IMG/VR virus record: IMGVR_UViG_3300042269_000088
Strand: one strand, 5' to 3'
Length of the DNA stretch: 39,729 nt
Source of the DNA: a virus
Shown: positions 6,368 through 21,221 of the stretch, piece after piece
Layout: each line of letters opens with the position of its first letter
How positions within the stretch are numbered: position 1 is the stretch's first letter
The notes under the pieces: model-generated
What the model was told of the DNA's origin: nothing
Databases searched by the model: none
What the model saw: only the letters and a program-made list of their open reading frames with translations
Program-made: the position numbers and the translations under genes

Positions 6368-6420
6368 CACAGACAGGCTCCACACCATGACAAGTGTTGG
6401 TTGCTTCGTAGCGTTACTTT

Positions 6421-6456
6421 TTTATAAACCGGAAAAAATTGTCAACGACAGACAGT
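6421..6456 (-). promoter_or_regulatory. Operator/promoter-like module, copy 1 (inside the 47-bp perfect inverted-repeat core; one half-site degenerate, GACAGT)
   Basis: Reverse complement of 6408..6454 equals 21167..21213. Confidence 0.5.
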
Positions 6457-6467
6457 TTTTTTAGGCC

Positions 6468-6577
6468 ATTCTACAACTGCAACAATTCTACAACACTATC
6501 AGAAACACCGTAAAACGGGAACTTTTATGTAGAATGAACTGTAGAACACGAAAAAACATCAACACTACAATTCTACA
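6468..6577. repeat. Iteron array: 5 copies of ATTCTACA / TGTAGAA(T/C)
   Basis: Copies at 6468, 6485 and 6570 (forward), and at 6528 and 6540 (reverse). Confidence 0.8.
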
Positions 6578-6595
6578 TGGTGTTGCCCTTCAGAA

Positions 6596-6631
6596 ATTGT
6601 CATTCTTTGACAATTTTTCCAAGTCTATAAA
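6596..6631 (+). promoter_or_regulatory. Operator/promoter-like module, copy 3
   Basis: attgtcattctttgacaatttttccaagtctataaa. Confidence 0.5.
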
Positions 6632-6704
6632 AAAGTTAACGAGAAGAAGGAAAGGAAAGGCCATTTTCTTGGCCTCTGTGCCGAATAGCTATGCTAGTGG
6701 GGAT

Positions 6705-6744
6705 TAATATAAAGAGAGCCAAGGAAGACGCCTTCTCTTGGCTC
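6705..6744 (-). terminator. Terminator closing the replication module
   Basis: 12-bp stem with one bulge, GAGCCAAGaGAAG-gcgt-CTTCCTTGGCTC, followed by tctttatatt. Confidence 0.7.
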
Positions 6745-6766
6745 GGAAAGGTGTCTGTGGTGCGGG

Positions 6767-7330
6767 TTACTTCTTGGCGGACCTGCGGAGGTAGTTTCCG
6801 ATATTCATTCGCTGCATCCCGTGATTCAGGTGGGAGTATTTCGCTCTCAATTCTGACTCTGGGGTGTCTGTGTGTTGCGACACTATTTCATATGCCTCAT
6901 CTAAATCTTTACCCATCAGAAGTTGCGCAACAGAATCACCATTACATTTGCTCTTGCGCCCGTTTGCAGTCACCCCGGTGACATACCTGGCCGCTATTTC
7001 GGGATCTACCACACCATTTTTAGGAGTGGTGGATGTATTTTCCTCGTCTTCGGCGGCATCTTCCTTGGACAGCTCCAATTCTGCCTGTACATCAGTGTGG
7101 GTGACTTCTGCTGCGGCTTCCAGAGCCTCCGTGAGGGCTTCCTCGTATTCCTTCTTGGAAGATTTGAACACCTCGGAGCGGACCATTTTCACAATTTCGG
7201 AGCCGTCAGCCGGGTTAAAGGTGATGAACTTATCATCAAAACCTGTGATTCTGCCAAACACCCAATCACCTGTCCCTGTGACATCAGCCTGAACATAACC
7301 ACCGACACTTGCTCTTTTTAATGCTTTCAT
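6767..7330 (-). CDS. Hypothetical protein (187 aa; acidic centre, basic C-terminus)
   Basis: Start chosen downstream of the consensus promoter at 7379..7407, with GAGGA SD in the conserved leader ATAGAGGATAGAGAA-ATG. Confidence 0.7.
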   Translation of the reverse strand: MKALKRASVGGYVQADVTGTGDWVFGRITGFDDKFITFNPADGSEIVKMVRSEVFKSSKKEYEEALTEALEAAAEVTHTDVQAELELSKEDAAEDEENTSTTPKNGVVDPEIAARYVTGVTANGRKSKCNGDSVAQLLMGKDLDEAYEIVSQHTDTPESELRAKYSHLNHGMQRMNIGNYLRRSAKK

Positions 7331-7378
7331 TTCTCTATCCTCTATCTCATTAGGTGTGGCCAACCCGACCACACCTTT

Positions 7379-7407
7379 ATTATACCATGGGTGTTTTATT
7401 TTGTCAA
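7379..7407 (-). promoter_or_regulatory. Sigma70 consensus promoter P3 (TTGACA-17-TATAAT)
   Basis: Reverse complement: ttgacaaaataaaacacccatggtataat. Confidence 0.8.
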
Positions 7408-7411
7408 TACC

Positions 7412-7624
7412 TTAGGCTGTTTCCAGTGCCAGCGCAACAAAATCTTCGAACTGGATTTTCTGCAACCGGTCATCGAAACCCTGGTTCAGGCGGCTCTGTT
7501 GTGTCAGCAACCAGACCAGCTCCAGGCGTTTAAGCTTTCTGACCGCATCGATTGCGTCTGTTTTGTTGCCGTTTTTCCAATTCGCGATGATTGCGGAAAG
7601 CTTGATCACTGTTGATTGTTTCAT
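7412..7624 (-). CDS. Hypothetical protein (70 aa)
   Basis: Own consensus promoter (7660..7688) and the conserved ATAGAGGATAGAGAA leader. Confidence 0.7.
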   Translation of the reverse strand: MKQSTVIKLSAIIANWKNGNKTDAIDAVRKLKRLELVWLLTQQSRLNQGFDDRLQKIQFEDFVALALETA

Positions 7625-7659
7625 TTCTCTATCCTCTATTGTGTCATCTCTATAGTTTT

Positions 7660-7688
7660 ATTATAGCAGACCATGGGCATCCTGTCAA
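7660..7688 (-). promoter_or_regulatory. Sigma70 consensus promoter P4 (TTGACA-17-TATAAT)
   Basis: Reverse complement: ttgacaggatgcccatggtctgctataat. Confidence 0.8.
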
Positions 7689-7694
7689 TACTCA

Positions 7695-7723
7695 AATAAA
7701 AAGACGCCCGCACTGTGGCGGGC
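7695..7723 (-). terminator. Rho-independent terminator after the VRR-NUC gene, immediately upstream of P4
   Basis: Reverse complement: GCCCGC-cacagt-GCGGGC-gtc-tttttattt. Confidence 0.65.
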
Positions 7724-7753
7724 CAATGACCAGGGTACCATCACTAATGGCAC

Positions 7754-8302
7754 TTACATTTTAACACGAGGTACTAAGTTGTACCATTCCTTGTGATAAT
7801 AAATTCCACCTTGATCCGAGTAGTACCAAATGGCATCCTCGTGACCTTTGATAAACTGACCAGGCCCGAATCTACCAGCTTTCGTTGGCCATTCTTTGAG
7901 TTCATCCCTAAGAAAGGAAAGGATTTTGTCGTTAGGAATCACTAACCAGGATCTTAACAAAATAGGATCTATTGATTTCCCCTGAACAAACAGAGGGTTG
8001 TCTATTGTGTTAGTGTCAAAGTGGTCTTTTGATCTAACTAACCAGGTTTTATCATCATCACCAACCAAGACATAACACGGTATCCCAGCATCTTCCTTTT
8101 GTTTTGCCCATCTACGCTGATTTGGCCTCCAGTCCTTCAAGTCAGAACCAAACTTTAATTCGATAAAACCAATATTCCCCAGCACATACATAACATCCGG
8201 GAAACCCACCTCCGATGTTTTCAGTTCAATTCGGTGGTGTTGGGCATCGGTCTTATCCAGCGCCCTTTTCAGCCTATGCCAAATACGCTGTTCCGGTTTC
8301 AC
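7754..8302 (-). CDS. VRR-NUC-like (PD-(D/E)xK) nuclease with C-terminal extension
   Basis: GFPDV...GFIELK motif. GTG start overlaps the upstream stop (GTGA) with GGAGGAG SD. Confidence 0.55.
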   Translation of the reverse strand: MKPEQRIWHRLKRALDKTDAQHHRIELKTSEVGFPDVMYVLGNIGFIELKFGSDLKDWRPNQRRWAKQKEDAGIPCYVLVGDDDKTWLVRSKDHFDTNTIDNPLFVQGKSIDPILLRSWLVIPNDKILSFLRDELKEWPTKAGRFGPGQFIKGHEDAIWYYSDQGGIYYHKEWYNLVPRVKM

Positions 8303-9084
8303 AACTGCTCCTCCTTGGCTCGCTGGCGGAGTTGGTTGGCCGCAGCATGTAATCGCTCGCGCTCTTGATGTAGCATCCATTCGCAATGATGCAGATCAGG
8401 ATCGATTGGGTTTGGTCCACCCGCATCAATGTGCGGTGCCTCTGTAGCTAAGAATCGCTCAATCACTTCGGCATCGTGGGCAGCCATATGCCGTATCAGG
8501 TCGTGGTGATTATCGCGGTACGGTTTCAGTGCCGCGACCTCCACTGCCAGTTGATCGCGCTCTTGCTTCATCTCTCCCCAGTTGGCACAAGCCGTCTTTG
8601 CTGCTTTCCGCTCGCGCTCCAGTTCCTCGTGTAGCCTGTTTGCCAAATACCACGGCGTCCAGTAACCGTCTTTGTGCGGTACCGAACGTGGCCTGTGCGA
8701 GCCGTTTTCGCGCAGGATGTAGCGAGGCAGCTCTTTCGGCCAGTCTTCTCCTGGAAGCGGTGGAATTTCGGGTTTCAGGCCGCGCAGATTAGTGACTTCA
8801 ATCTGTAAGTGTGTTAGCTCGCGTTGCAACCGCTCCACCTCGGCTTGTAGCTGCTCGATTTGAATTTTCTTCTCAATGAGCAGGTTCATGCGCGTGAAGT
8901 CGGCTTGCTTATCACCTTCCCGCAACCGCTCCACCTCGTCACATAGCGCCGTGATCGTTTTCATCTGCACCGCAGGCCAGCCGTCAGGCTGATGGTCTTC
9001 AGCCATCACGCGGCACGTCGCGATTACGTGATCCATCTCGTCATCCGTCATGTCCGTCATGTCCGTCATTTCATCTTTTTTCAT
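8299..9084 (-). CDS. Hypothetical coiled-coil protein (261 aa)
   Basis: Long ORF with GGAAGGA SD. N-terminus MTDMTDMTD is encoded by a 9-bp tandem repeat. Confidence 0.7.
   Translation of the reverse strand: MKKDEMTDMTDMTDDEMDHVIATCRVMAEDHQPDGWPAVQMKTITALCDEVERLREGDKQADFTRMNLLIEKKIQIEQLQAEVERLQRELTHLQIEVTNLRGLKPEIPPLPGEDWPKELPRYILRENGSHRPRSVPHKDGYWTPWYLANRLHEELERERKAAKTACANWGEMKQERDQLAVEVAALKPYRDNHHDLIRHMAAHDAEVIERFLATEAPHIDAGGPNPIDPDLHHCEWMLHQERERLHAAANQLRQRAKEEQL
9045..9069. repeat. 9-bp tandem repeat (ccgtcatgt x 2.8) encoding MTDMTDMTD
   Basis: Read directly from the sequence. Confidence 0.85.
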
Positions 9085-9133
9085 GGTCTCTAATCCTTCC
9101 TATTTCGCACCCTAAGCGCGTTTTAGTCTAACC

Positions 9134-9376
9134 CTAGCAAACACACCTGTTAGCCTCAAACGCCTTAATAACCGCCTCTGTGACAGCTTCAGAGTACAAC
9201 TCCTCCTCCGGTATGCCGTCCACAGGGGCAACGGTGTATTCGATCTCGGTAAAGCCGTAGAAGTTGATGTCGCTGGCCCAGCTTGTCGGATCTGGATCCT
9301 GGTGAACGTAGTGTGTAACCGTCACTGTTATGGGCACTTCGTGTTGCGGGTGTTGGATGGTGAGAGTGTGGTTCAT
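9134..9376 (-). CDS. Hypothetical protein (80 aa)
   Basis: ATGA overlap with the upstream gene. Confidence 0.6.
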   Translation of the reverse strand: MNHTLTIQHPQHEVPITVTVTHYVHQDPDPTSWASDINFYGFTEIEYTVAPVDGIPEEELYSEAVTEAVIKAFEANRCVC

Positions 9377-9561
9377 CGTCCCGCCTCCAGTTTGTCCCGC
9401 AACTCAACCAGCAGCCTGACCGCATAATCAATATCCAGCCCGAGCTGTTTCGGGTCTGGCTGATCACCACCGCCGTGACGCCGCCAGTAGTTAGCCGACT
9501 TGAGCCGTGCAACGACATCATCCAGCTCGTTGCGGTTGTTCAATTCGTCTGACAAGTTCAT
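9373..9561 (-). CDS. Hypothetical protein (62 aa)
   Basis: ATG at 9561 overlaps the stop of the upstream gene (ATGA). Confidence 0.55.
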   Translation of the reverse strand: MNLSDELNNRNELDDVVARLKSANYWRRHGGGDQPDPKQLGLDIDYAVRLLVELRDKLEAGR

Positions 9562-9779
9562 TGTTCGCACTCCCGTTCGGCTAGCATGGCGTCGGCCATT
9601 GAGTATGACCACTTAGCCATATCACAGAACGCCATATCAACCTGAGAATCAGATACTAATCCCTGCATAGCCTTAGCCGCAAAATAATCCCGCAGAGTCA
9701 TGCCGCCATCAGTGATAGACACATTGCCCGCCGTTTTGGTTTTTGGAAATGCACTCGGGTTTCTTGGTTTGCTGTTCAT
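9558..9779 (-). CDS. Hypothetical protein (73 aa; GMTLRDYFAAKAMQG motif)
   Basis: GGAG SD 10 nt after the datZ stop. Confidence 0.6.
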   Translation of the reverse strand: MNSKPRNPSAFPKTKTAGNVSITDGGMTLRDYFAAKAMQGLVSDSQVDMAFCDMAKWSYSMADAMLAERECEQ

Positions 9780-9789
9780 CTCAATTCTC

Positions 9790-10302
9790 CTATTTCAGCA
9801 CTTTATCCAATGTAGTCGGGTCATCAGACAAGAGACTGTCTAAAAGAGCCAGGGCATCTTCGTCTTTTATCTTCACTGCTATACTGGCCATCACTTGCTC
9901 TGCATGAATACCGATACCGTATTTCTTCAGGAAGTACACAGCATCAACCAAATCAGCCAACTTGATTACTTCCTTATATTCTGGGTTGCTTTCCTTTATC
10001 GGTGCACCAAGATACTTCATCCGATGTTCTACGGGGTCACTGTAATTGATAGCCTCTTTGAGGACTGTAGGCATATCTCCCGTGAGTGCTTCCCCAAGAT
10101 CATGGTATAGTGCCGATATCATTACTTCCTGCCAAGGAAGACCCTTTTTCTGCGCCAGAAACCCCGCCAGAAGGGCCACGTTAAAGGAATGTTCAGCTAC
10201 GGATTGGTTCTTAACGAAATCTACGATATGCCACCGGGTGACATGGGTGTTACGCAGCACATCCTGCGGTGTCAGGTTTATTGGGAGGTGTAAGTAAGCC
10301 AT
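9790..10302 (-). CDS. datZ: HD-domain phosphohydrolase, DatZ-like (predicted dATP triphosphohydrolase)
   Basis: AEHS...YHDLGEALTGDMP (H..HD..E..TGD, YfbR-like). 170 aa. TAATG coupling to mazZ. Confidence 0.7.
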   Translation of the reverse strand: MAYLHLPINLTPQDVLRNTHVTRWHIVDFVKNQSVAEHSFNVALLAGFLAQKKGLPWQEVMISALYHDLGEALTGDMPTVLKEAINYSDPVEHRMKYLGAPIKESNPEYKEVIKLADLVDAVYFLKKYGIGIHAEQVMASIAVKIKDEDALALLDSLLSDDPTTLDKVLK

Positions 10303-11003
10303 TATTTATGCCTCATGATGCCAGTCTGTGGGTCAACAGCCCATGTCCGGTTTTCATTGATTTCCATTTTGTCGTGCACGGCTTGGAGTGCATCAATGCC
10401 GCGCATTTGGGCAATATCAAACAACAATATCAAGGTGTCGGCGTATTCGCCGGGGTCATCCAAGCCACCATTCAGGAGTTCTGGAATTTCCTCCAGCATC
10501 AATTTTGCTAGTGCCCCGTGGGGTGTTCTGCCGGGGTACACTCGGTCTGCCCATGACTTGATTCTTTCTTGCGCCGCCGCAATTGGGTCCGAACCACATT
10601 TGCGCATTTCTTGCAGATCCAGTATCTCTTCTTCACCCGACTCGGTGAAAATGCTTCCAATTCCTTTTCTTCCTTGCACTTCAAGCAAGTCTTTTTTATA
10701 ACGTCGGTCATCAAAACCCCCAAAATTATTGTGTGTGTAGTGATGAAGAAACATCATACAGCAGGTGGCATGTGCCAGGTGGCTGCGATTAGTCTCGGCA
10801 TCGATCTCTTCACCACATTCAAAAGCCGAGATGTGTCGCTTGGCAGCGTCGATTACGCGTGAATATTCAATACCATTCATCCAGTTGGGACCGCCGTATT
10901 TATCTTCACCGTACCCCAGCACATGCGCCACGTCCTCTAGGAAGGAAGGGTCAATAAGACCCAACCTCGGTTTCCCAGAGTCAAATTTGACTCCCTTGCT
11001 CAT
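10302..11003 (-). CDS. mazZ: Two-domain (d)NTP pyrophosphohydrolase, MazZ / DUF550-like
   Basis: N-terminal FDSGKPRL...DKYGGPNW domain plus a C-terminal MazG-like EEIPELL...EYADTLILLFDIA...NENRTW. ATGA coupling to purZ. Confidence 0.65.
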   Translation of the reverse strand: MSKGVKFDSGKPRLGLIDPSFLEDVAHVLGYGEDKYGGPNWMNGIEYSRVIDAAKRHISAFECGEEIDAETNRSHLAHATCCMMFLHHYTHNNFGGFDDRRYKKDLLEVQGRKGIGSIFTESGEEEILDLQEMRKCGSDPIAAAQERIKSWADRVYPGRTPHGALAKLMLEEIPELLNGGLDDPGEYADTLILLFDIAQMRGIDALQAVHDKMEINENRTWAVDPQTGIMRHK

Positions 11004-12058
11004 AGTTCCCTCACGTTATCAGAGGTGGGGCCAAAACCTAAGTATTTAACACCACCACAGCCCACATTGTTTGCCACATTGTTGATCACGGAAACGATAA
11101 AAGCCGAATGTTGCTCATCACGGCAGTAATTTACGAAGTTCAGGAATACCTCGTCTGGCTGCACGGCACGTAGGGCATCCTCGGTCTGTTTCCGTGAGAA
11201 TGTGAAAATGCGTCGCGGCAATTGCGTCACTGTGGTCAATTCCACCGGCTGGCCCAAGTCGTTGAAGGTGATTTCCTTCTGGTCACTGTAGCACGGCCCC
11301 GACCAGCCGATCATCTCACCATCTTTATTGAACCGGTTTGCAACACGAATTGGGTAGGTACGCATTGTGCCAACGATCTTAGTTAGCCAGCGCATCGGAA
11401 CGCCCGCATCCACCATTATTTGTGCCGGTGTGCACTCACGCGACGTGGTATACGGGTAGAAACCAGAATTTATGCCGAGAGAATAGCCTTGTGCTCCCTC
11501 GACCAAAACGTTCTCTGACCGGTCCAGCGCCTTGTTGTAATTCTCGGATGTGGCCGTGCTGATATCAATATTCAGACGGTCGGAAAATGCCAACACTTCG
11601 TTGGTGAAGTCACGGGCCGTAATCACAGACTCCGGGTTTCGACGGATTTTCTCGATCATAGCGGCACCACAGCCTTTTTTGGTGGAACCGATGGCCGTCA
11701 TCGAGCCTCCTTCCTCCAGAATGTGGCGCTCCTGAATCACACACGCATTTTCATGGATGATGATCTGAACACCCTGCAGCAGGTCTTGGCATTCCTCAAT
11801 TTCAGCAAAAAGGCGATCAAGACCGATCTGTGAGCCAGGGCCAATCAACACCTGCCGAAGATTTGGTGACACAATGCCATTGGCCAACATACAGTGAACG
11901 AATTTGCGGCCATCGCGGTTAATGTAGGTGTGTCCGGCATTCATACTCCAAGCCGTAACCACCGTGTCCGGCTTGTCACGCTCTGCCAGATACCCCGCAA
12001 TCAAACCCTTGCCGGTTGATCCAAACTGGAGATCACAAACAACCGTTACCTGTCTCAT
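11000..12058 (-). CDS. purZ: PurZ-like N6-succino-2-amino-2'-deoxyadenylate synthase (truncated PurA homologue)
   Basis: 352 aa. P-loop FGSTGKGL (PurA has GDEGKGK). IGSTKKGCGAA, VEGAQGYSL..YPYTTS, MRTYPIRV and TTVTQLPRR align with PurA landmarks. Confidence 0.85.
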   Translation of the reverse strand: MRQVTVVCDLQFGSTGKGLIAGYLAERDKPDTVVTAWSMNAGHTYINRDGRKFVHCMLANGIVSPNLRQVLIGPGSQIGLDRLFAEIEECQDLLQGVQIIIHENACVIQERHILEEGGSMTAIGSTKKGCGAAMIEKIRRNPESVITARDFTNEVLAFSDRLNIDISTATSENYNKALDRSENVLVEGAQGYSLGINSGFYPYTTSRECTPAQIMVDAGVPMRWLTKIVGTMRTYPIRVANRFNKDGEMIGWSGPCYSDQKEITFNDLGQPVELTTVTQLPRRIFTFSRKQTEDALRAVQPDEVFLNFVNYCRDEQHSAFIVSVINNVANNVGCGGVKYLGFGPTSDNVREL

Positions 12059-12288
12059 ACGTAATCCACTCCATCATCAGCATCTTGCTGCAGTTGCTCA
12101 ATAAGGTGTTGCATCTCAGAAATTTGATCCTCAAGGTGTACCACATGTTCCTTAAGTGACTCAATTTCGGATTCGCGCTCTTCGATAGCGGTGTCAATTT
12201 CCGATACCGCCTTATCAATGAATTTTTGTACCACACCCCCGATTGAGGATGGGTCGTCAACATCAATATAGAAAACTTCAGTCGCCAT
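12055..12288 (-). CDS. Hypothetical acidic coiled-coil protein (77 aa)
   Basis: ATG at 12288 with GAGGA SD. Stop overlaps the purZ start (ATGA). Confidence 0.6.
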   Translation of the reverse strand: MATEVFYIDVDDPSSIGGVVQKFIDKAVSEIDTAIEERESEIESLKEHVVHLEDQISEMQHLIEQLQQDADDGVDYV

Positions 12289-12299
12289 GTCTGGTGTCC

Positions 12300-12539
12300 T
12301 CAAAAAGGAATATCATCATCAAAATCAACATCTGATGCGCCGGATTCCACCTGTTCCTCAACGGGGGTCAAAGCCAGGGACATGAAATTTGCACCATTGC
12401 GGGATTTTTTCACCCAAGCGGAAACCCAAAACTCAACACCATTGGCATTGATGCGGCCACGGTACTGCGGCTGGCGGTCGTTGGTGCGCTTGTCGTTCTT
12501 GAACAGGGCACCGGAATTTGTGTTATCAAAGTCTGACAT
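12300..12539 (-). CDS. Small single-stranded-DNA-binding protein with bacterial SSB-type acidic tip
   Basis: Ends in DVDFDDDIPF (E. coli SSB ends in DFDDDIPF). ATG at 12539 with the conserved TAATAGAGGATAAGACA leader. Confidence 0.6.
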   Translation of the reverse strand: MSDFDNTNSGALFKNDKRTNDRQPQYRGRINANGVEFWVSAWVKKSRNGANFMSLALTPVEEQVESGASDVDFDDDIPF

Positions 12540-12906: not shown

Positions 12907-12910
12907 TACC

Positions 12911-14749
12911 TCATGTGATTGTCGGTGCCAAGGTTGCATCCCACCAGTTGGACGAAGGTTCTGAAAAATCTATCCGCAGTGGCACCCTGATTTCGGGTCT
13001 GTTCTGAACCAAAGCCTTAATTTCCTTCATGTGCTTTTCAGCACCACCAAATGGTATGGAAATCGAATACTCGTCATGAATATTCAACAACAACTTGGCG
13101 TCTGGACATTCGGACGCCAAATACTTTGATATGCGAATAATATTGCTTTTGTTCAAATCCCCCGCAGTACCCTGATATACCAGCCCAGACGCTTTGTGCG
13201 TGAATTGTCCACCCGGAAACCGTATGTGCCTGCCCATCAGGGTTTTAACATAACCCCTGGACTTGGCGATTGCCCTTGCCTTTTGTGCAATCTCCTTAAC
13301 ACCCGGAACCATAGAGTAATACTGGTCGATGATAGCTTGGGCTTCCTTCCCGGCTTTTTTGATTTCCCTAAGCTCACCACCAAGCTCAACCTCTTCGACG
13401 GTATATGGCAACCCCATCTGCGCTGCCAGTTCACCGCCGCCCATATTAAACACCATGCCCAAGTTCATCTGTTTTGCATTAGCGCCTCCCGATTGGGGTG
13501 CGTTTCGCGGCAGTCCTGTAAGCTCGGCAATAGCTGCATGTCCATCAAGGTCGGGGTTTTTTGCATAGGCCGACACAATGTTGCCGTTGTTCACATAATG
13601 ATGGAAAATCCTCAACTCGTGCTGATCCAAGTCGCCGTATGTCCAACCCATGTCCTCGTCGGGGAGAAATATCGGGCGAACCACAGACGCCACATCTTTG
13701 TCCCGAGACGGTATTTGCTGCAATGCCGGTCTGGTATAGGACAATCGACCAGTGCCTGTTCCTCCCATCCCATCACTTTTGGTCTGGTTGATGTTCGGGT
13801 GCACCCTCCCGTTTTTCTCGTGCCCCAAGATGTGCCCGCCGATGAATGTGTCGCGGGTCTTCATCATTTTCCTTACTTTTAGGATTAGTGCAGCTGCGGG
13901 GTGCTTCATTGAGCGCAGAACATCCGCACCAATGGATGGTTTACCGGCAGGTGTGGTCGGCAAAATGGTCCCATCACATGCTACCCACACACCGGACTTG
14001 TTCTGCTTCGGTTCGAACAACTTCATAATCGAACCGGACGGATTGGGGTTGACCTCAAACCCCGCCACCTCATTTAGCCGTTTTTGATTCAAGTCGATGG
14101 TGGAAGTTAGTGAAGACATCTGGATTTCTGCCTTGTCATGGTCTATCCGGATACCATGCCGTTCCATTCGGAATACATGTGGGAACAGTTCCCTTTCCAA
14201 ATTCCACACGTCGTGCAACTGCTGGCGCTCAATCTCTTTTTCCTGCCACAAATACAATTCCAGGGCTATTTCGGCATCGACCTTGGCATAAGGTTCCACC
14301 AGTGATGGCGGTGCCCTGTGCAGATTTGGCATTTGTGCGTTTCGTGTTACCCTTCCACCAAACAATGCCGCCAACTTCTCGTAAATGTCATCAACTTTGT
14401 TTTTGCCAAGGTATTTCTTAGCCAGGGAATCCAAGCTGTAACTGTGGAGGTGTTCATTTATCAAAGCCGCCCTGATCATGGTATCTTCACACTGTTCAGG
14501 TTCCAATAGCACACCATCGTTCTTCAACATGTGAAGATCAAACTTCATGTTGTGATTCACAACCTTCTTGAACTCGGTGCTCAGAAGCTTTTTGTATTTT
14601 CCGGGTTCCCTGCGGATATCAAAATATTCAGACTTGATTTGACCATTTTCTACCCATGCTATGGCCACACCGAAAATTTTGTCCTCTAACCAGTTAACGC
14701 CTGTGGTTTCAACGTCAATGCACACCAAGTCAGAAAGTTCCCAACTCAT
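12911..14749 (-). CDS. dpoZ: Family-A DNA polymerase with 3'-5' exonuclease, DpoZ-like
   Basis: Exo I CIDVETTG. Pol motif A DLDQHELRI. Motif B NAKQMNLGMVFNMG. Motif C NIHDEY. 612 aa. Same strand as purZ and 850 bp away from it. Confidence 0.8.
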   Translation of the reverse strand: MSWELSDLVCIDVETTGVNWLEDKIFGVAIAWVENGQIKSEYFDIRREPGKYKKLLSTEFKKVVNHNMKFDLHMLKNDGVLLEPEQCEDTMIRAALINEHLHSYSLDSLAKKYLGKNKVDDIYEKLAALFGGRVTRNAQMPNLHRAPPSLVEPYAKVDAEIALELYLWQEKEIERQQLHDVWNLERELFPHVFRMERHGIRIDHDKAEIQMSSLTSTIDLNQKRLNEVAGFEVNPNPSGSIMKLFEPKQNKSGVWVACDGTILPTTPAGKPSIGADVLRSMKHPAAALILKVRKMMKTRDTFIGGHILGHEKNGRVHPNINQTKSDGMGGTGTGRLSYTRPALQQIPSRDKDVASVVRPIFLPDEDMGWTYGDLDQHELRIFHHYVNNGNIVSAYAKNPDLDGHAAIAELTGLPRNAPQSGGANAKQMNLGMVFNMGGGELAAQMGLPYTVEEVELGGELREIKKAGKEAQAIIDQYYSMVPGVKEIAQKARAIAKSRGYVKTLMGRHIRFPGGQFTHKASGLVYQGTAGDLNKSNIIRISKYLASECPDAKLLLNIHDEYSISIPFGGAEKHMKEIKALVQNRPEIRVPLRIDFSEPSSNWWDATLAPTIT

Positions 14750-16164
14750 ATCAGTTCCCTCAAAGGATTTGACCCCATAACAATGTCCAAACGCTCCTTG
14801 GCCCTGGTTACGGCAACGTAAAATGTGCGGATCTCGGAATCGCGTTCTTTCGATTCATATGTTCTTTGTCCCATACCATTAACCAAGATAATTCTGTTTG
14901 CCTCTTTACCCTTGGATGCATGGATGGTACATATTCTAACATCTGTAGATTTCGGTAGGCAACCGTGGGATTCAAAAATCCTCTTCAGGTATGAAATGAG
15001 GTCGGGCTTGAGGTCCAGTACCTGTTCCCAACTCTTCTTGATTTCCACCCTTCTTTTTACCTTGTCCCTATAAACCGGTTTCACAGCCCGTTCCAGGGCA
15101 TTCCACTCCTTGTCGCTGAGCATATCCAGCCCGGTATTGGCCATATTCTGCTGGTATTTACACCAAACGCGAACGGCATTGGCTTGCCTAGATGACAAAG
15201 GTGCTGGCTTTCCGCCGTCAGCCGTATATGCTACACCCCGCGACACCAACCATTCTTCTATGTCCTCCCTTATAGAGTGATTACGCACCAATATCATAGT
15301 TTCACCAGTTGGGGTGTCAACCATCCTGATGTCCCCATATCTGTTAATTACACCCTTGTCAGCTTTCGGGCGGTACTCTTTTTCCACTCGGTCTGACACA
15401 TTTGATATAAGGTCGGTAGCGAGGTCGTGGACCGAGGATGGTATGCGGAAGGACTGGTCGAGGACGACCCTTTTGGCACCATGTCTGATCTCGAAATCGG
15501 GCATACCCGACGGGTCTGCACCATTCCACTTGTATATGGACTGGTCATCATCACCGGCAATAATTATTTCCTTCAGGAATGGAATCCACGATTCCACCAG
15601 ACGCCACTGCTGTGGCGTGAGATCTTGGGCCTCATCTACCACCAAAATGTCTACTTCTGGGTCTTCACCAACGGCCAGATCCAACATGTCCGAGAAGTCC
15701 ACAACGCCATAAGCTTTCTTGAATGACTCATACGACTCAACAAAATAAATGAATTCGTGCAGTGCACCAACCTCTGGACACTCCATGAAAACACCTTTAT
15801 AATTCGTTGTCAGCTTGGCCCTGGCCAATGAATATAATGACATATATGCCTGTCCCTTGGTCATTTCCGTAATTTCATAGGAATTTACAGAACTGAACTG
15901 TATGCCAATAACCTTGGTCAACTCCCGGAGCCATGAATCGTTTATCACCCGCTCCTTCGACAGTCCTGCCAGTCTATAACCATATGAGTGCAGTGTGGAA
16001 ATTTCTCTTCCAGCCGGTATACCACACCGATCAGCAATCTCTTTTGCCGCCGCTTTTGTAAATGACACTACACCGACTCTTTCCTGTTGATAGGACTTGA
16101 CCCTATTAACCAAATAGGTAGTTTTGCCCGTACCCGGAGGACCGTAAATAACTTCTGCTTTCAT
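14746..16164 (-). CDS. SF1 (UvrD/RecD/Dda-like) DNA helicase
   Basis: Walker A GPPGTGKTT, Walker B VVDEAQD, C-terminal TIHASKGKEA. ATGA overlap with dpoZ. Confidence 0.8.
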   Translation of the reverse strand: MKAEVIYGPPGTGKTTYLVNRVKSYQQERVGVVSFTKAAAKEIADRCGIPAGREISTLHSYGYRLAGLSKERVINDSWLRELTKVIGIQFSSVNSYEITEMTKGQAYMSLYSLARAKLTTNYKGVFMECPEVGALHEFIYFVESYESFKKAYGVVDFSDMLDLAVGEDPEVDILVVDEAQDLTPQQWRLVESWIPFLKEIIIAGDDDQSIYKWNGADPSGMPDFEIRHGAKRVVLDQSFRIPSSVHDLATDLISNVSDRVEKEYRPKADKGVINRYGDIRMVDTPTGETMILVRNHSIREDIEEWLVSRGVAYTADGGKPAPLSSRQANAVRVWCKYQQNMANTGLDMLSDKEWNALERAVKPVYRDKVKRRVEIKKSWEQVLDLKPDLISYLKRIFESHGCLPKSTDVRICTIHASKGKEANRIILVNGMGQRTYESKERDSEIRTFYVAVTRAKERLDIVMGSNPLRELI

Positions 16165-16175
16165 TCTATCACCTA

Positions 16176-16199
16176 TAAAAAAGGCGGGTTTCCCCGCCT
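16176..16199 (-). terminator. Rho-independent terminator
   Basis: Reverse complement: AGGCGGG-gaaa-CCCGCCT-tttttt. Confidence 0.8.
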
Positions 16200-16204
16200 C
16201 AATT

Positions 16205-16930
16205 TTACATCTCGCTGTCGTCTTCCGTAACTTCAGTACTGCGGTCCACTGCAGCTCCTCCGGATTTCACCATGTCGTAAATTTGCTCGGCATGCTTGAA
16301 CACCTGCTCTGTTACAAAGCCGACATTCTTCACGGACAGATTGTAGAAATCCTGGCCAGCCTTGTTCTGGTCGGCAACACCAGAAATCTTGTACACACGT
16401 GAGAATCGCGGCCCACCATTGATTCGAACCAGGCTATTCCAGTTACGGCTCACACGGGACTTGGTTTTTGCCATGGATATGACGGCTTCTTCAACAGAAC
16501 CATCCTCCTTCAGTACCAGCACGAAATGCTGATTGGTGTCCACAACTTCCCACTCATGTGGCACTTCTTGTGTCTGTCGGGCCTCTTCAGCACTAGCACC
16601 ATCTGGGAACGCACCACCGAAACCACCTCCGAGCTTGGTGTCACGCCACAGAAGGTATTCCTTGCGGAAGAACACCGGAACCACATTAATTAACTCGCCG
16701 TACAGCTCACGGGTGACATTATTGTACAGCATGCCCTCTTGAGCACCATCAATGTATGCGGGGTCTGTCTTCTTCCGGCATGCGGACAGGGACTGAACCA
16801 ATTCAATTCGAGGAATCACCAAATCATCAGAACCGACCTCTTCAGATCCACGATTATCCTGCATCTTTTCCTGTAGGAATGCTGGCATTGTTTCATTCAT
16901 ATTCACATTTGACACTTCATTCTTAGCCAT
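16205..16930 (-). CDS. Hypothetical replication/recombination-module protein (241 aa, acidic C-terminus)
   Basis: ATG at 16930 with AAGGTGG SD. Followed by a strong terminator. Function not recognised. Confidence 0.7.
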   Translation of the reverse strand: MAKNEVSNVNMNETMPAFLQEKMQDNRGSEEVGSDDLVIPRIELVQSLSACRKKTDPAYIDGAQEGMLYNNVTRELYGELINVVPVFFRKEYLLWRDTKLGGGFGGAFPDGASAEEARQTQEVPHEWEVVDTNQHFVLVLKEDGSVEEAVISMAKTKSRVSRNWNSLVRINGGPRFSRVYKISGVADQNKAGQDFYNLSVKNVGFVTEQVFKHAEQIYDMVKSGGAAVDRSTEVTEDDSEM

Positions 16931-16946
16931 CTTATCCACCTTTCTA

Positions 16947-17432
16947 CTAACGCTTGGTTATTGTTGCACGTGAAAACGGAGTTACTTGATAAACATCTTC
17001 TGGGATTTCAATGCCATCCCGGAGCATTCGACGAATTAGCGCCTTTAATGACGACGCATTTACCGTCTCGGAGATAAGATCTTCATGACCATTTTCCGCC
17101 AGCCATTCGAAGCTTGCCTCCTTGTTGTTGATCTTCAGATAAATGTCCGAAGTCAACGACACCCTGCCAACACCCTGCACAGTGATGGACTCTACACCTT
17201 CTTCGTCCATCTTCATGGGCACTGCATGAGTGCGGACGTAATCATAAACCTTACCAACGGCAGATTTATGGCTGTCCAGTTTTTCATGCAATTCCTTGAT
17301 GTCGGCCTGGAATTGTGCCAACTGCACCAAATCCAGACTATCAAAATCCAGGGATTCTGTGTTGAACCCCTCTACCGCAGAACCAAGACTTTCCTCGGCC
17401 AGGCTTATTGCCTTGACGAATGCATCTATCAT
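16947..17432 (-). CDS. Hypothetical protein (161 aa; possibly Gp157-like)
   Basis: N-terminal coiled coil. Abuts the upstream stop codon. Family call is weak. Confidence 0.6.
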   Translation of the reverse strand: MIDAFVKAISLAEESLGSAVEGFNTESLDFDSLDLVQLAQFQADIKELHEKLDSHKSAVGKVYDYVRTHAVPMKMDEEGVESITVQGVGRVSLTSDIYLKINNKEASFEWLAENGHEDLISETVNASSLKALIRRMLRDGIEIPEDVYQVTPFSRATITKR

Positions 17433-17747
17433 CTATCGGATCTCCATTTCTATGGGTCGGTACCTACCGCCAATTTTGTCCCATAGCAGGACATTAACAA
17501 CATCACATCTCTCGGCGGCTTTGTGGAACGCATACCCGATCACAGCGGGGTTTCCCGTCAGCACCAAATAATCATCCTCACCAAACTGCTCAAGCGTGGA
17601 GTCAATTCGGGTCATGATCGACTCATTAATCAATGAACCCCGAATCGGCTTAATCTCATCGCGAGTAATGAAATTCACCTCACCAAACCGCTCAGCATCG
17701 GAATAATCAATGTAATTATTCTCCTGAACCACCCAAACTTTGTTCAT
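17433..17747 (-). CDS. Hypothetical protein (104 aa)
   Basis: First gene after promoter 17772..17800. AGGAGAATAGA leader. Confidence 0.65.
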   Translation of the reverse strand: MNKVWVVQENNYIDYSDAERFGEVNFITRDEIKPIRGSLINESIMTRIDSTLEQFGEDDYLVLTGNPAVIGYAFHKAAERCDVVNVLLWDKIGGRYRPIEMEIR

Positions 17748-17771
17748 TCTATTCTCCTATCCAATAAGGAA

Positions 17772-17800
17772 ATTGTATCACACCGTGGGGCTTCGGTCAA
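17772..17800 (-). promoter_or_regulatory. Sigma70-like promoter P6 (TTGACC-17-TACAAT)
   Basis: Reverse complement: ttgaccgaagccccacggtgtgatacaat. Confidence 0.65.
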
Positions 17801-19444
17801 CTATAATTTTGAACGGACATATTCGGCAACGTCCATCTTGCTCCTGAGAATATTCATGATGTGTGCATCCTTTGACCCCTCCGCCACTATGTCCACGTAT
17901 AACACATTTTTATCCTGACCAATACGGTGGCACCGGTCCTCGGATTGCATTCTGTCGGACAACTTAAGTGAGTTGCTGTAGTAAATAACCAGGTTAGCGT
18001 TATTTAAAGTAAGACCAGTGCCGCCGGTCTGCTGGTTGGCAACGAATACCTTGGCGGGTCCAGACGTGAATCTTTTCAAACTTTCCTCCCGTTCATCCGA
18101 AGACAAACCACCGTGGTACTCCACACACTCGATGCCCGAAGACTTCAGCGCCTCCACGATATCTGCGATTTCCCGCCTGAATTTTGCCCACACTATGACA
18201 TCACCACCCACATTCTGCCTCACCAATTCCAGCAGTTCCATAATCTTGGGGTTTTTGTCCGGTTGGACTATCACGGAAGTTTTGCGGCCATCATCGGTGT
18301 CATGGTTGATAAAACCTCCGGATATCTGTTGCAGCATCGTATATTTGGCCAGCACCTGATCCACAAACACCTTGACACTCTCAGTGCCATTGTGGATCAT
18401 GGACTCCATTTCCTTATCTATTTCCTTATAAAACTTCTTTTGTTCCTTTGTCATTGAAACTGTTCGGACGCTATAGGTCTTCTCCGGTAGGTCCAAAACG
18501 TCTTCCTTCTTACATTGGAAGGTGAACGGCTTGATGGTATCCATCAACTCATCCTGGTTCTGATACCCAATTACTTCCCTGTTCTCATAGCCGCCCATAA
18601 TTGCGTATCTGGATTTGAACGCGAAATAACTACCAAACCCCAGGATGTTCGGGTCCAATATGTCAAAGGGCATGTACAAATCCAAAAGTCCCTGAGTTAC
18701 GGGGGAGCCGGTCATGATATTCGCAACCACAGCGCATGATGCGATGTGCTTGATATTCCTGGCCCTGTTTGCATCTGGGTTTTTACACAGGTGCGATTCA
18801 TCCAAGGTAACGGCATATCTCTCCCCGCCTATGATATCAAGCATGGCATCATAGGCACTGCCGCCTTTATACTTTGATGACATGCTTTCTATGCCGACAA
18901 TGACAACCTTCAACTTTTTGTCTGGGGCTTTCACTTTCCTGCCGGATTGAATGACAACCACACCAACATCTAGTGGGCAGTGGATTTCTATTTCGCGCAT
19001 CCAGTTAAAACGTATTGAATTCGGGCAGAACACCACCCAAGTATCAAATCTACCCGCCAAAATATGTGCGGACATCAGATCTATGGCAGTTTTGGTCTTG
19101 CCAGTGCCCATCTCCATGAAGAATGCGTGCCGGTCTAAACCATAAGCGTAATTGAGTGCCTGCATCTGATGCAAAAATGGTTTAGTCTTAAACTTGTAAT
19201 CCTTCGGGAACGGTATGTATTGCACCTGCTTTAATTGGACAACCTGTTCCGCCACTACAAGAGCTTTTTCGTCCATGTATCTGCGGAGATGTTCCAGCAT
19301 GAACTCACATGCTTTCCTGACCTTCGGAACCGCCCACTTCCTAGACCTTGAATTAAACCGCTTCATTGGCAGTGCCGCAATCAACTGGTTCTCTTCAAAG
19401 CCGCATTCTATCACGAATTTGTTGCGCTCTAATGTGATTTTCAT
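17801..19444 (-). CDS. SNF2-family (SF2) helicase / translocase
   Basis: MEMGTGKT (motif I), LDESH (motif II), TGGTGLTL and QSEDRCHRIGQ (motifs V/VI). Confidence 0.85.
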   Translation of the reverse strand: MKITLERNKFVIECGFEENQLIAALPMKRFNSRSRKWAVPKVRKACEFMLEHLRRYMDEKALVVAEQVVQLKQVQYIPFPKDYKFKTKPFLHQMQALNYAYGLDRHAFFMEMGTGKTKTAIDLMSAHILAGRFDTWVVFCPNSIRFNWMREIEIHCPLDVGVVVIQSGRKVKAPDKKLKVVIVGIESMSSKYKGGSAYDAMLDIIGGERYAVTLDESHLCKNPDANRARNIKHIASCAVVANIMTGSPVTQGLLDLYMPFDILDPNILGFGSYFAFKSRYAIMGGYENREVIGYQNQDELMDTIKPFTFQCKKEDVLDLPEKTYSVRTVSMTKEQKKFYKEIDKEMESMIHNGTESVKVFVDQVLAKYTMLQQISGGFINHDTDDGRKTSVIVQPDKNPKIMELLELVRQNVGGDVIVWAKFRREIADIVEALKSSGIECVEYHGGLSSDEREESLKRFTSGPAKVFVANQQTGGTGLTLNNANLVIYYSNSLKLSDRMQSEDRCHRIGQDKNVLYVDIVAEGSKDAHIMNILRSKMDVAEYVRSKL

Positions 19445-20979
19445 AACTCAGGCTCCACACGTACCGGCTCCAGGTCAATCACATCCCCGTCATTTAGGGG
19501 TGCGAACCACACTGATATTACCGATGACTCAACCCTCAGCTTGGCATGCTCAACGCCAACCTTCCTAAGTGCCATCCACAAGTTAGAACCTTTCAACTCC
19601 TCCGACCTGTTCTTCTTGAGGAAGTCAATGAAATCGGAACCCCTGAAGTATACTACGCGCTTTCCATCCACCTTTTGCACGACTGGTGATCCGAGCAACA
19701 ATGCTCTGCGCTCTGTTATGTCTTCACCACCGGATGACAAATCAGCCCGCCCGAAGAATTCAAACAGTCGCTCGCGAATAAAGCCGTATGCGGACGCCTC
19801 CTCCGGTGCCTCCAAAATGATTGCCTTCTCCATCAGGCTACACAATGTGGCTTCCCATTTGTCGTTTTTCATTGGGGCGATGATTTTTGTCAGATTGTCA
19901 GCAACAGCACGACGAACAGCTTTATAATCCATCAATTCATGTGTGGCCAGGGTGACGGGTGTATCATCTACATATAAAACCCACCTGACGGGTTCGGTAG
20001 TGTACTTTTCAAGCTTCCCGAATTCTGGCGGTTTACCAAGCTCTAGTTCACCCTTCTCTTCCGGTGTAATCCCAAATTTGCGCTTAACACACAAAGAACT
20101 GTTACATAAAGACCTGCACGGTTCTTCCTTGCATTTGTACCGGTACTCCCGGCGGCTGGCACTGGTGATGGTTCGTTTCGCCTCACTGTGGACCAGCGGT
20201 TTTTCAAAAATTCTGGCATTTGCATCGAATGCCCTATCCTTCCATGTTTCTGGGAATGCCTTTTTGAAATATATCACCAGGTTATATAGGGCTTCATTCC
20301 TGTGGCCCCTACCAACACCATCAACCAACATCCTCTGGATACACGGTGGTGCTTCTCCGTGCTCCCCGTCGGTCTTTTCTATTAGAATAGCTGGTTTTAC
20401 CCTTCTGGATTCAGCAAGGCTAAGGAAATAGGCAAAGGGGACCTTCTGGCCACCCTCGAAGCAATACCTGAGTTCATTTGGGCTGTCAGCATCAAAACAG
20501 CACAGGTTGAGCCAATTTCCGAGCTGCCTCTCACCACCAGACTCCGGCAGGTTATCCTGCTTGGGGAAAATTTCGACCCCAGGATATCCAACAAGACCCG
20601 CCCACTTTGCCAGTGCTTGTCTTACCACCTTGGCCGGTGTGGGATCTGTCATGAACAGATAAAGATGTGCGCCGCCCGACTTAGATCTGCATATTGTTAG
20701 CGGTAGATCATTCTGCTTAACGGCCTTTTCAAGCTCCAACAAATCAATATCGGGACTGTCACCATGTGCATCAATATCAATGGCACCAAACCAGCAATTT
20801 CCATCATCCAATACGGGAACCACTCCCACACCTTCCTCCCCGGAAAGGTGTTTCTCGTATTGCTCGAACCCGATGGCACTCCTTTCAGTGTGCATCTTGC
20901 CAGTTTTCGGATTAAAGACACCATAAGACCTGGGGTTCCCGACAAACAAGCCGGAAAACCGCTCTATTTTCTCTTTCAT
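19441..20979 (-). CDS. Archaeo-eukaryotic-type primase (prim-pol fold) with C-terminal extension
   Basis: GAIDIDAH (DxD) and SKSGGAHLYLF (sGGxH) motifs. 512 aa. No P-loop seen. Confidence 0.65.
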   Translation of the reverse strand: MKEKIERFSGLFVGNPRSYGVFNPKTGKMHTERSAIGFEQYEKHLSGEEGVGVVPVLDDGNCWFGAIDIDAHGDSPDIDLLELEKAVKQNDLPLTICRSKSGGAHLYLFMTDPTPAKVVRQALAKWAGLVGYPGVEIFPKQDNLPESGGERQLGNWLNLCCFDADSPNELRYCFEGGQKVPFAYFLSLAESRRVKPAILIEKTDGEHGEAPPCIQRMLVDGVGRGHRNEALYNLVIYFKKAFPETWKDRAFDANARIFEKPLVHSEAKRTITSASRREYRYKCKEEPCRSLCNSSLCVKRKFGITPEEKGELELGKPPEFGKLEKYTTEPVRWVLYVDDTPVTLATHELMDYKAVRRAVADNLTKIIAPMKNDKWEATLCSLMEKAIILEAPEEASAYGFIRERLFEFFGRADLSSGGEDITERRALLLGSPVVQKVDGKRVVYFRGSDFIDFLKKNRSEELKGSNLWMALRKVGVEHAKLRVESSVISVWFAPLNDGDVIDLEPVRVEPEL

Positions 20980-21073
20980 CTATTCTCTCCATTATAAGAA
21001 CCCAGAGATTTTCATTTAAAGACAACCTCTAGGGGGCAACACCATCTTATCATGTTACCGTAGTCTCTTACAA

Positions 21074-21153
21074 GTTCTACAGCTTATTCTACACCTAACC
21101 TCCCGTCCTACGGTGTTTCTGATAGTGTTGTAGAATTGTAGTAGGTGTAGAAT
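21074..21153. repeat. Iteron array: 4 copies of (A/G)TTCTACA / TGTAGAAT
   Basis: Copies at 21074 and 21086 (forward), and at 21129 and 21146 (reverse). Confidence 0.8.
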
Positions 21154-21164
21154 GAACTCCGAAT

Positions 21165-21200
21165 ATTGTCTGTCGTTGACAATTTTTTCCGGTTTATAAA
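21165..21200 (+). promoter_or_regulatory. Operator/promoter-like module, copy 2 (ATTGTC-N7-GACAAT palindrome over TTGACA, then TATAAAAAAG)
   Basis: attgtctgtcgttgacaattttttccggtttataaa. The -35 to TATAAA spacer is only 13 nt. Confidence 0.5.
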
Positions 21201-21221
21201 AAAGTAACGCTACACGGGGGA

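Follow-up and report, generated by a model that had tools for sequence, protein, structure and literature searches.

Why should a virus keep two copies of one AT-rich, non-coding element on either side of its replication genes? The question is raised by IMG/VR virus record IMGVR_UViG_3300042269_000088, a stretch of DNA of 39,729 nucleotides (nt), referred to here as the window, in which a pair of inverted repeats brackets the genes for replication and for the 2-aminoadenine (Z) base. Published work on Z phages has centered on the Z-nucleotide enzymes and the polymerase; the start of replication and the timing of transcription form the gap addressed here. To judge from sequence comparison, the two repeat arms are copies of a conserved cis-acting cassette on which proteins would assemble. 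They most likely make up a dual or bipartite replication origin, perhaps with a part in promoter control as well, a reading to which we give about an even chance. Their best explanation appears to be that the cassette belongs to the replication module of a group of siphophages encoding PurZ and an AEP-type primase. Such a sharply bounded two-copy cis-element, conserved throughout the group, is the obvious candidate for the origin and control region of these phages, and its presence in the cultured and tractable phages SH-Ab 15497, PMBT28, VLCpiS6a, and Kokobel2 makes it directly testable. It also raises the question of what becomes of an “A/T-rich” unwinding tract once all its A residues are Z, and it would matter for the building of Z-DNA replicons.

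Extent and Position of the Repeat Arms

The inverted repeat described in the earlier note is real. A repeat finder places the arms at 6408-6547 and 21074-21213, each 140 nt long, 86% complementary and 14,526 nt apart, and MAFFT alignment recovers the two perfect blocks, one of 47 base pairs (bp) (6408-6454, the reverse complement of 21167-21213) and one of 31 bp (6482-6512, the reverse complement of 21109-21139). Chance does not account for this similarity, since the longest exact inverted match is 47 nt in the window and at most 18 nt across 30 shuffles. The length of about 194 bp originally given to the arms stands in part: with a single 1-nt indel the similarity does run on to about 6612 and 21010, but it is weaker past the 140-nt core. 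This weaker extension holds a 12-mer common to both arms (ATGGTGTTGCCC, at 6577-6588 and 21034-21045) as well as a TTGTC...GA(C/A)A palindrome. The arms do occupy the two biggest non-coding gaps, 6389-6766 (378 nt) and 20980-21284 (305 nt), the third largest being 187 nt. Two features had been overlooked: the right arm also sits directly upstream of the primase gene (ATG at 20979), and a third copy of the core is found at 6596-6636 (+), which turns the left region into a quasi-palindrome of 230 nt. The G+C content is 33.6% in the left cassette and 38.5% in the right one, vs. about 51% for the genome. The lower G+C once ascribed to most of the bracketed module holds weakly (48.3% inside, 52.6% outside).

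An exact direct repeat of 127 nt is present at the ends of the window (1-127 = 39603-39729). The likeliest explanation is that a circular k=127 assembly overlaps itself there, in which case the genome measures 39,602 bp. As the longest perfect block in the arms (47 bp) is shorter than this overlap, a misjoin induced by the repeats is unlikely.

Anatomy of the Cassettes

Each arm is built around a short centre, with two TTCTACA iterons in forward and two in reverse orientation about it, and the left arm has a fifth copy. The components are as follows, with the strand in parentheses where one applies (iterons are from a motif count).

Left, terS-proximal cassette:
6408-6636, the whole AT-rich quasi-palindromic element, about 230 bp
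6417-6426 (-), outer A/T-tract element TATAAAAAAG, facing terS, 13 nt past palindrome 1
6440-6454, palindrome 1, TGTCAACGACAGACA, an exact match to the pattern TGTC-N7-GACA
6469-6475 and 6486-6492 (+), two forward iterons TTCTACA
6508-6519, centre CCGTAAAACGGG, short and hairpin-like, of the conserved RGGACGSGG class
6528-6534 and 6540-6546 (-), two reverse iterons TTCTACA
6571-6577 (+), fifth iteron copy, overlapping the common 12-mer
6598-6612, palindrome 2, TGTCATTCTTTGACA, 158 bp from palindrome 1
6626-6635 (+), second outer TATAAAAAAG element, facing right, within the third core copy

Right, primase-proximal cassette:
20980-21213, the whole element, between the primase ATG at 20979 (-) and the early promoter at 21222
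20991-21024 (-), stretch containing the promoter-like site TTTAAA-18-TATAAT, which reads into the primase gene and overlaps the degenerate palindrome
21010-21024, degenerate palindrome 2, TGTCTTTAAATGAAA
21075-21081 and 21087-21093 (+), two iterons TTCTACA
21103-21113, centre CCGTAGGACGG (GGACGGGAG in the primase-sense strand), from the alignment
21129-21135 and 21146-21152 (-), two iterons TTCTACA
21167-21181, palindrome 1, TGTCTGTCGTTGACA, 157 bp from degenerate palindrome 2
21195-21204 (+), outer TATAAAAAAG element, facing the early operon

These motifs are concentrated in the arms. TTCTACA occurs 11 times in the window, where 3.2 copies are expected, and nine of the 11 lie in the arms; the only three exact TGTC-N7-GACA palindromes of the window (starting at 6440, 6598, and 21167) all do so. 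Found 13 nt outside each palindrome is TATAAAAAAG, but TATAAT on the primase side. The outer element at 6417-6426 could be either a -10-like hexamer or a DNA-unwinding tract, and its geometry recurs at the outer edges of the cassettes in the relatives labelled L026, L028, L020, L022, L023, and L007. Two more exact TATAAAAAAG decamers lie outside the arms, at 10691-10700 (-) in the MazZ-like gene and at 16174-16183 (+) in the gap between UvrD and the gp34-like gene.

Carrying the core at both ends, the left region folds as single-stranded DNA into one long imperfect hairpin (z = -4.6), the fold of the right arm being less clear (z = -2.3). A scan of the window against Rfam matched no family. 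Comparison with a sister phage (98% primase identity), whose intergenic regions are 100% (right) and 96.3% (left) identical to those of the window, gives modest support to selection on the cassette motifs. Of the 16 substitutions or indels that separate the two phages in the 378-nt left intergenic region, a single one falls in an annotated motif (the last base of an outer element), although such motifs make up 29% of the region (binomial P of about 0.03 for 1/16 differences, by our own calculation).

A Two-Copy Architecture Shared by Relatives

Neither the left intergenic region nor 25 kb of the window found a DNA match in a phage collection, and relatives were reached through their proteins, chiefly the primase. 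In the phage collection, primases 55–60% identical are found in Klebsiella VLCpiS6a, Pseudomonas PSA28, Salmonella PMBT28, Providencia Kokobel2, and ten Acinetobacter phages including SH-Ab 15497; IMG/VR and other metagenomic contigs supply further ones at 52–98% identity. The gene order of the replication module is kept in all of them. In every relative checked an iteron cluster lies directly upstream of the primase gene, 14 relatives having equivalent clusters, and the cassette ends 10–70 nt before the primase start codon.

Relatives with one arm only and unchanged gene order and regulation had been named as what would speak against the earlier note. Instead, two cassettes are present in all relatives with both regions and a primase at least about 55% identical, that is, in about ten lineages. 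Both regions were compared in the sister phage, L021, L020, L024, L025, L007/L023, SH-Ab 15497, PMBT28, VLCpiS6a, and Kokobel2. Where a single region was sampled, a cassette was found there too: upstream of the primase gene in L026, L028, L004, L005, L006, and L011, and before terS in L022. The second cassette occupies the far end of the replication/early region, the two copies being 14.5 kb apart in the window and 12–23 kb apart in relatives. The paired clusters, and the iteron of each lineage, are these:

SH-Ab 15497 (MG674163), clusters at 21074-21156 and 42949-43031 in cassettes spanning about 20930-21160 and 42949-43250, iteron GAGCAACC
L020, clusters at 12-245 and 19311-19549, iteron AACCTAC
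L021, clusters at 1598-1658 and 13711-13779, iteron CGGTAACA
PMBT28 (MG641885), clusters at about 20859-21032 and 43616-43873, iteron ATGGAAC(G), as in L004 and VLCpiS6a
VLCpiS6a, clusters at 25301-25475 and 1670-1927
Kokobel2, clusters at 39157-39290 and 14155-14300
L006 and L011, iteron CCTATCACA
L025, iteron CTGCTACA
Window lineage, iteron TTCTACA

L024 and L025 likewise have a second cluster of their own iteron type. Thus the iteron sequence varies from lineage to lineage and is of identical type in both cassettes of one genome, with 4–8 copies per cassette. Around it the remaining parts change far less. Exact TGTC-N7-GACA pairs bracket the iterons in 11 cassettes at a spacing of 157–174 bp (less certain are two pairs spaced more widely, by 189 and 202 bp), and none exists in three control phages with a TerL related to that of the window. 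Outside each palindrome an outward flank, ATTTTTC-N6-TAnnnnAAAAG, is conserved in position among lineages, and an RGGACGSGG centre can be read in the sequences of all lineages compared. Constant half-sites and centre, together with iterons that vary by lineage and match within a genome, would be the signature of co-evolution with a phage-encoded binding protein.

In one cassette each of L020 (about 95-115 vs. about 19420-19440) and L025 (about 350-365 vs. about 20990-21010), the 10–12-nt centre, GGAGGACGGG / CGTAGGACG, is strand-switched relative to the iterons, an arrangement that looks like a flip of the loop in the central hairpin.

The cassettes follow the replication genes rather than the packaging genes. 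TerL of the window is 76–78% identical to TerL of three non-Z phages (L029-L031) that lack cassettes and carry a TerS of another family and entirely different replication modules (DnaB, lambda-P-like or Zn-ribbon primase). The cassettes are kept in PMBT28 and SH-Ab 15497, in which no similarity to the TerL of the window was detectable. The structural module of this Z phage is thus mosaic, its TerL matching phages with different replication modules. TerL homologs were also tried as a route to the second cassette of L026 (primase 82% identical); TerL being mosaic, the matches were non-Z phages, which then served as negative controls. One TerL match is labelled Porticoccaceae, a hint at a marine gammaproteobacterial host.

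A Putative Dual Origin

What could such an element be for? The interpretations attached to the repeats in the earlier note fared unequally, and as a set they are partly supported. The one that stands is a duplicated regulatory/origin cassette served by the same binding proteins, for which the concentration of motifs in the arms and the two-copy architecture of every relative examined both speak. Like an iteron origin, each cassette has a cluster of short sites, an adjoining AT-rich tract, and a position beside a replication gene; like a dual origin, two similarly built copies lie kilobases apart in one genome. The origin reading is further supported by the retention of the cassettes across unrelated terminase and structural modules, with one copy always at the primase gene. 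A combined role in the timing of transcription is likely.

In the mechanism that we propose, one or more phage proteins from the replication module would bind the lineage-specific iterons and the conserved palindromes, and would bend or wrap the roughly 160 bp in between (about 158 bp from palindrome to palindrome, roughly 15 helical turns). The flanking A/T tracts would then be opened, and the AEP primase with the SNF2 and UvrD helicases could start DNA synthesis. The second cassette would be another origin or else a partner site that the first requires, on the models of SPP1 oriR and P4 crr. Given the outward-facing promoters on either side of the cassettes, the same complexes would probably modulate transcription of the primase gene, terS, and the early operon as well.

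Several observations weigh against an origin. No direct computational signal of replication start was obtained at the cassettes: the GC skew of SH-Ab 15497, a relative with all genes on one strand, is uniformly positive with no inflection and is uninformative on the origin, and DnaA boxes were not found in the arms. The cassette centre is GC-rich, not AT-rich, and Z substitution would make A/T tracts difficult to melt. An operator/promoter would account equally well for palindromes at a constant distance of 13 nt before the TATAAA-like hexamers of operon starts. On the protein side, the C-terminal region of the primase has no Foldseek match in the PDB at E <= 0.001, and none of the candidates examined (this region, an AlpA-type helix-turn-helix protein, a 201-residue protein, and a Pam3 gp34-like protein) emerged as the cassette binder.

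A more specific version of the origin reading would meet the melting problem head on. In it the window has one bipartite Z-genome origin, in which a phage protein bound at the palindromes and iterons pairs the two cassettes and wraps about 158 bp, the replication genes are looped out, and priming occurs at the GGACGGG hairpin centre, with no A/T melting at all. The hairpin centre is preferred to the A/T tracts here because Z:T pairs, with their three hydrogen bonds, are hard to open. Although we regard this version as unlikely, a hairpin-primed bipartite origin would, if true, be a previously undescribed way of firing an origin on hyper-stable DNA. Two other ideas, priming sites on opposite strands (as ssiA/ssiB of RSF1010) and a polar fork trap, were weakened by the direct cassettes of three phages and by the switched centre strand in L020 and L025.

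Alternative Explanations

The main rival to an origin is that the cassettes serve transcription alone, which we hold to be possible rather than probable; all readings other than these two are, even when taken together, rather unlikely. Here a phage regulator dimer would bind TGTC-N7-GACA operators overlapping the -35 regions of promoters that face outward and a second factor would bind the iterons, setting the switch from early to middle/late expression for primase, terS, and the early operon. The cassettes do lie at operon starts (primase, terS, early block), a palindrome-N13-TATAAA/TATAAT arrangement is found at all four outer edges in the window and also in L026 and L028, the promoter-like site of the primase gene overlaps the degenerate palindrome, and a perfect early promoter lies 9 nt past the right arm. 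The same features look different elsewhere in the group, however. L020 and L022 have TACGCG, which is not -10-like, at the position of the hexamer; in SH-Ab 15497 and PMBT28 the promoter-like sites for the primase are downstream of the cassette and separate from it; and the second cassette of PMBT28, VLCpiS6a, and Kokobel2 sits amid small early genes and not before the late operon. Within the window, the third core copy (6596-6636) is directed at two terminators and at a convergent gene's 3′ end, and 5–8 iterons, two palindromes, and a centre spread over 230 bp exceed known phage operators in complexity.

The remaining explanations deal with the arms as sites of exchange, packaging, recombination, or transposition. 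The largest share of this small remainder goes to the proposal, in itself improbable, that the arms are homology linkers at module boundaries, used for swapping replication or structural modules. One replication module type is indeed joined to unrelated terminase and structural modules, the TerL identity to non-Z phages quoted above being a case in point, and the palindrome and A/T-tract parts are similar between lineages. Yet the stretches conserved across lineages are just about 15–40 bp, the cassettes being mostly lineage-specific, and linkers would leave unexplained the internal architecture, the fixed 158-bp spacing, and the match of iterons within a genome. No exchange breakpoint has been mapped to an arm, and the module-exchange boundary of the earlier note is plausible as a side effect only. 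It is very improbable that TerS recognizes the terS-proximal arm as a pac site, with the other arm serving as a decoy or duplicate. A distance of 20 nt separates the left arm from the start of terS, and pac sites of the SPP1 type are repeated boxes near terS; but the cassettes are kept with unrelated terminases, are not present in the three phages with a closely similar TerL, always include one at the primase gene, and in PMBT28-type phages place the second about 2 kb from terS.

Doubtful to a slightly greater degree is the proposal that the 14.4-kb replication module inverts through recombination between the arms, whether homologous flip-flop or site-specific. The two are indeed inverted repeats, with perfect blocks long enough to recombine. 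All other evidence is contrary: the right junction is identical (311/311 nt) in four independent JGI assemblies, the arms are only about 86% alike, in the window and in the sister phage equally, and so are not being homogenised, and genes from primase to terS are co-directional in every relative, the module never being flipped relative to terS. Pfam and PHROG scans of about 40 open reading frames (ORFs) turned up no domain of a serine or tyrosine recombinase or of an invertase. Finally, the cassettes are inverted in six lineages (the subclade of the window, L021, L020, L024, L025, and SH-Ab 15497) but direct in the enterobacterial phages PMBT28, VLCpiS6a, and Kokobel2, where alignment scores are 46–57 for direct and 28–37 for inverted orientation. 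Since three phages carry direct copies, inverted orientation is not a conserved requirement. In the window it is a lineage trait, and the module is not an invertible segment. Least credible of all is a selfish, quasi-palindromic element like a miniature inverted-repeat transposable element, inserted twice. The size (about 230 bp), AT-richness, intergenic location, and terminal inverted repeats of about 50 nt would suit one, but the positions are syntenic even in lineages with primases only 55% identical, there are exactly two copies per genome, and two core 24–25-mers have 0 exact matches in 185,579 bacterial and archaeal genomes. The signature TGTC-N7-GACAATTTTTC retrieves 92 IMG/VR stretches, which by a rough estimate is about the number expected by chance for 15 specified bases; among these the known relatives alone were real.

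The perfect 31-bp and 47-bp blocks do have a practical consequence, as they fragment k=31 assemblies of these phages. Among Logan contigs of this phage from several runs, L034 and L035 start at window position 21139, exactly at the 31-bp block, and L036 and L037 at 6437, inside the 47-bp core. These breaks are the expected, normal behavior of a k=31 assembly graph and not evidence of isomers. A metagenome contig collection in which this phage is not represented gave a single chance match, inside coding sequence.

Comparison with Known Origins

The closest parallel to the proposed dual origin comes from Bacillus phage SPP1, whose two origins, similar in build and separated by about 13 kb of the circular map, both bind gp38; at oriR the bound initiator has been proposed to stall the fork and so bring about the switch from theta to sigma replication and the synthesis of concatemers (PMC6316719). 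Like SPP1, the phage of the window would be a lytic siphophage with two elements made of repeats and an AT-rich part, one beside the replication genes, the other near late genes in a long intergenic region. The differences are substantial. Proteins of the gp38, gp39, and DnaB types were not detected by Pfam/PHROG among the ORFs of the replication module, whose set consists of AEP primase, SNF2 and UvrD helicases, and PolA. Furthermore, SPP1 oriL lies inside gene 38 and its origins have direct repeats only, with neither a palindrome pair nor a GC-rich centre. For the cassettes of the window, unlike those of SPP1, origin function is deduced.

In satellite phage P4, 8-bp iterons are reportedly (Flensburg & Calendar 1987; Ziegelin et al. 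1993) located in ori and in crr, on either side of the alpha gene, with both sites needed in cis. Short iterons in two separate clusters flanking a replication gene are thus a common trait, P4 adding to it a primase protein that binds them through its C-terminus, where alpha has a winged-helix origin-binding domain (PMC2777425). However, alpha combines a DnaG-type primase with an SF3 helicase, whereas the primase of the window is an AEP with no helicase domain, and its C-terminal fold has no significant match to a winged-helix origin binder.

Iteron plasmids (F, R6K, pPS10, P1) resemble the cassettes in having iterons, an inverted-repeat operator, and an AT-rich tract beside the initiator gene. 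RSF1010 uses a RepB′ primase, a structural relative of that of the window (Foldseek E of 1e-5). Its oriV has GC-rich and AT-rich blocks beside the iterons. Plasmid iterons, by contrast, are direct, 17–22 bp long and spaced by about 22 bp, whereas those of the present group are 7–9 bp long and stand head to head; in addition, the window has two full cassettes per replicon and no detectable initiator of the RepA/RepC/Rep_3 type. Origins of the staphylococcal pathogenicity islands (SaPIs) have two sets of short iterons flanking a central region, next to the pri-rep genes. The arrangement about a centre is alike, and the SaPIbov1 Rep protein is the best, though non-significant, neighbor of the primase C-terminus, but SaPIs have an AT-rich centre and a single copy in each element. 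Herpes simplex virus has palindromic origins, oriS and oriL, between divergent promoters of replication/early genes, oriS occurring twice and inverted. A palindromic element between promoters in two inverted copies is again a likeness, in this case to a eukaryotic virus with an unrelated binder, UL9, whose copies lie inside large inverted genome repeats that isomerise.

A phage iteron origin with dual copies is therefore of a kind already known. No description of these cassettes was found by full-text searching on the cultured relatives and on origin and iteron terms. New, as far as we have checked, is the combination in Z-genome phages of a palindrome pair about 158 bp apart, lineage-specific head-to-head iterons, and a conserved GC-rich centre.

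Candidate Binding Proteins

Which protein might recognize the cassette? The primase, as modelled with AlphaFold2 (predicted local distance difference test, pLDDT, 86.8), is an AEP of the RepB′/PrimPol type, its N-terminal domain matching CAPP Prim-Pol (E of 3e-11), RSF1010 RepB′ (1e-5), and S-2L PrimPol (5e-5) in Foldseek. Its C-terminal 213 residues are a candidate DNA-binding part. Modelled alone (residues 300-512, pLDDT 85), they form two alpha/beta subdomains with a helix-helix-hairpin end, the last two helices of which are conserved and the terminal hairpin “wing” variable. The best PDB neighbor of the region, below significance, is the SaPIbov1 Rep initiator (E of 0.075, probability 0.97, over 83 columns); the Cch helicase and RepE54 give weak Foldseek matches, and in a viral structure library it matches other phage primases only.

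The AlpA-type helix-turn-helix protein (22472-22654) was rejected as the binder, as it is not conserved and occurs outside the window only in the 98%-identical sister. For neither the 201-residue ORF at 6767-7372 (g201) nor the Pam3 gp34-like protein is there a relative of solved structure. No DnaB/DnaD-type or loader domain was found by Pfam/PHROG in the ORFs of the replication module.

Enclosed Module, Neighboring Genes, and Promoters

The 14.4 kb between the arms, said in the earlier note to hold all replication genes and the Z cluster, do contain the genes for AEP primase, SNF2, UvrD, the family A polymerase PolA, PurZ, a MazZ-like diphosphohydrolase, and an HD/DatZ-like phosphohydrolase, but thymidylate synthase lies outside. 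In Pfam/PHROG scans the minus-strand genes between the arms also encode Pam3 gp32/33/34-like proteins and an SSB-like protein. The main neighbors are:

4630-5886 (-), TerL, left of the left arm
6656-6677 and about 6716-6744 (-), two terminator-like hairpins closing the leftward replication/early operon immediately ahead of the cassette, the second read from the sequence
11000-12058 (-), PurZ, between the arms
19441-20979 (-), AEP primase (PrimPol type), the gene adjoining one cassette in every relative
21222-21250 (+), perfect sigma-70 consensus early promoter (12/12, with TG), 9 nt past the end of the repeat and outside the cassette, driving the plus-strand early genes
21997-22335 (+), Lar-like restriction-alleviation protein, early block, outside the bracketed module
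22472-22654 (+), AlpA-type helix-turn-helix protein of 60 residues with an excisionase-like match, early block, outside the bracketed module
24663-25520 (+), thymidylate synthase, early block, outside the bracketed module

Both terS and terL lie to the left of the left arm, terS starting 20 nt away. No Shine-Dalgarno sequence precedes the annotated terS ATG at 6388, and an in-frame alternative exists at 6274 (-); the 38 N-terminal codons are kept in the sister phage, and the true start is uncertain.

Four perfect sigma-70 promoters (12/12, with the TG extension) are found at 21222-21250 (+), 21540-21569 (+), 7379-7407 (-), and 7660-7688 (-), and have about 40 nt in common (TTGACA..AACCATGGGTGTTATAAT). 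One may speculate that so perfect a consensus compensates for Z substitution in the -10 element. Comparable consensus promoters, likewise repeated, are found in the small-gene regions of PMBT28 and SH-Ab 15497. A sigma-70 scan of the cassettes themselves gave one 10/12 site for the primase, one 9/12 site inside the iterons, and no more; within the core, the conserved TTGACA and TATAAA are spaced by 13 nt, which, read from the sequence, is too short for sigma-70.

The block of small early genes (21285-27246, +) lies on the opposite strand, between the tail genes and the primase. PMBT28, SH-Ab 15497, VLCpiS6a, and Kokobel2 encode everything on a single strand, with the small genes placed after the Z cluster; the closer relatives L026 and L028 have the divergent early-block arrangement of the window. 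Since strand layouts differ in this way (L026/L028 vs. L017/L018 types), a rearrangement must have occurred in the subclade of the window, with one breakpoint at the primase-proximal cassette. A further difference, that of a Dam-like (MethyltransfD12) gene missing from the window, is seen in L026 (10662-11393) and L028 (7156-7884), whose primases are 82–83% identical and in which it lies between UvrD and PolA.

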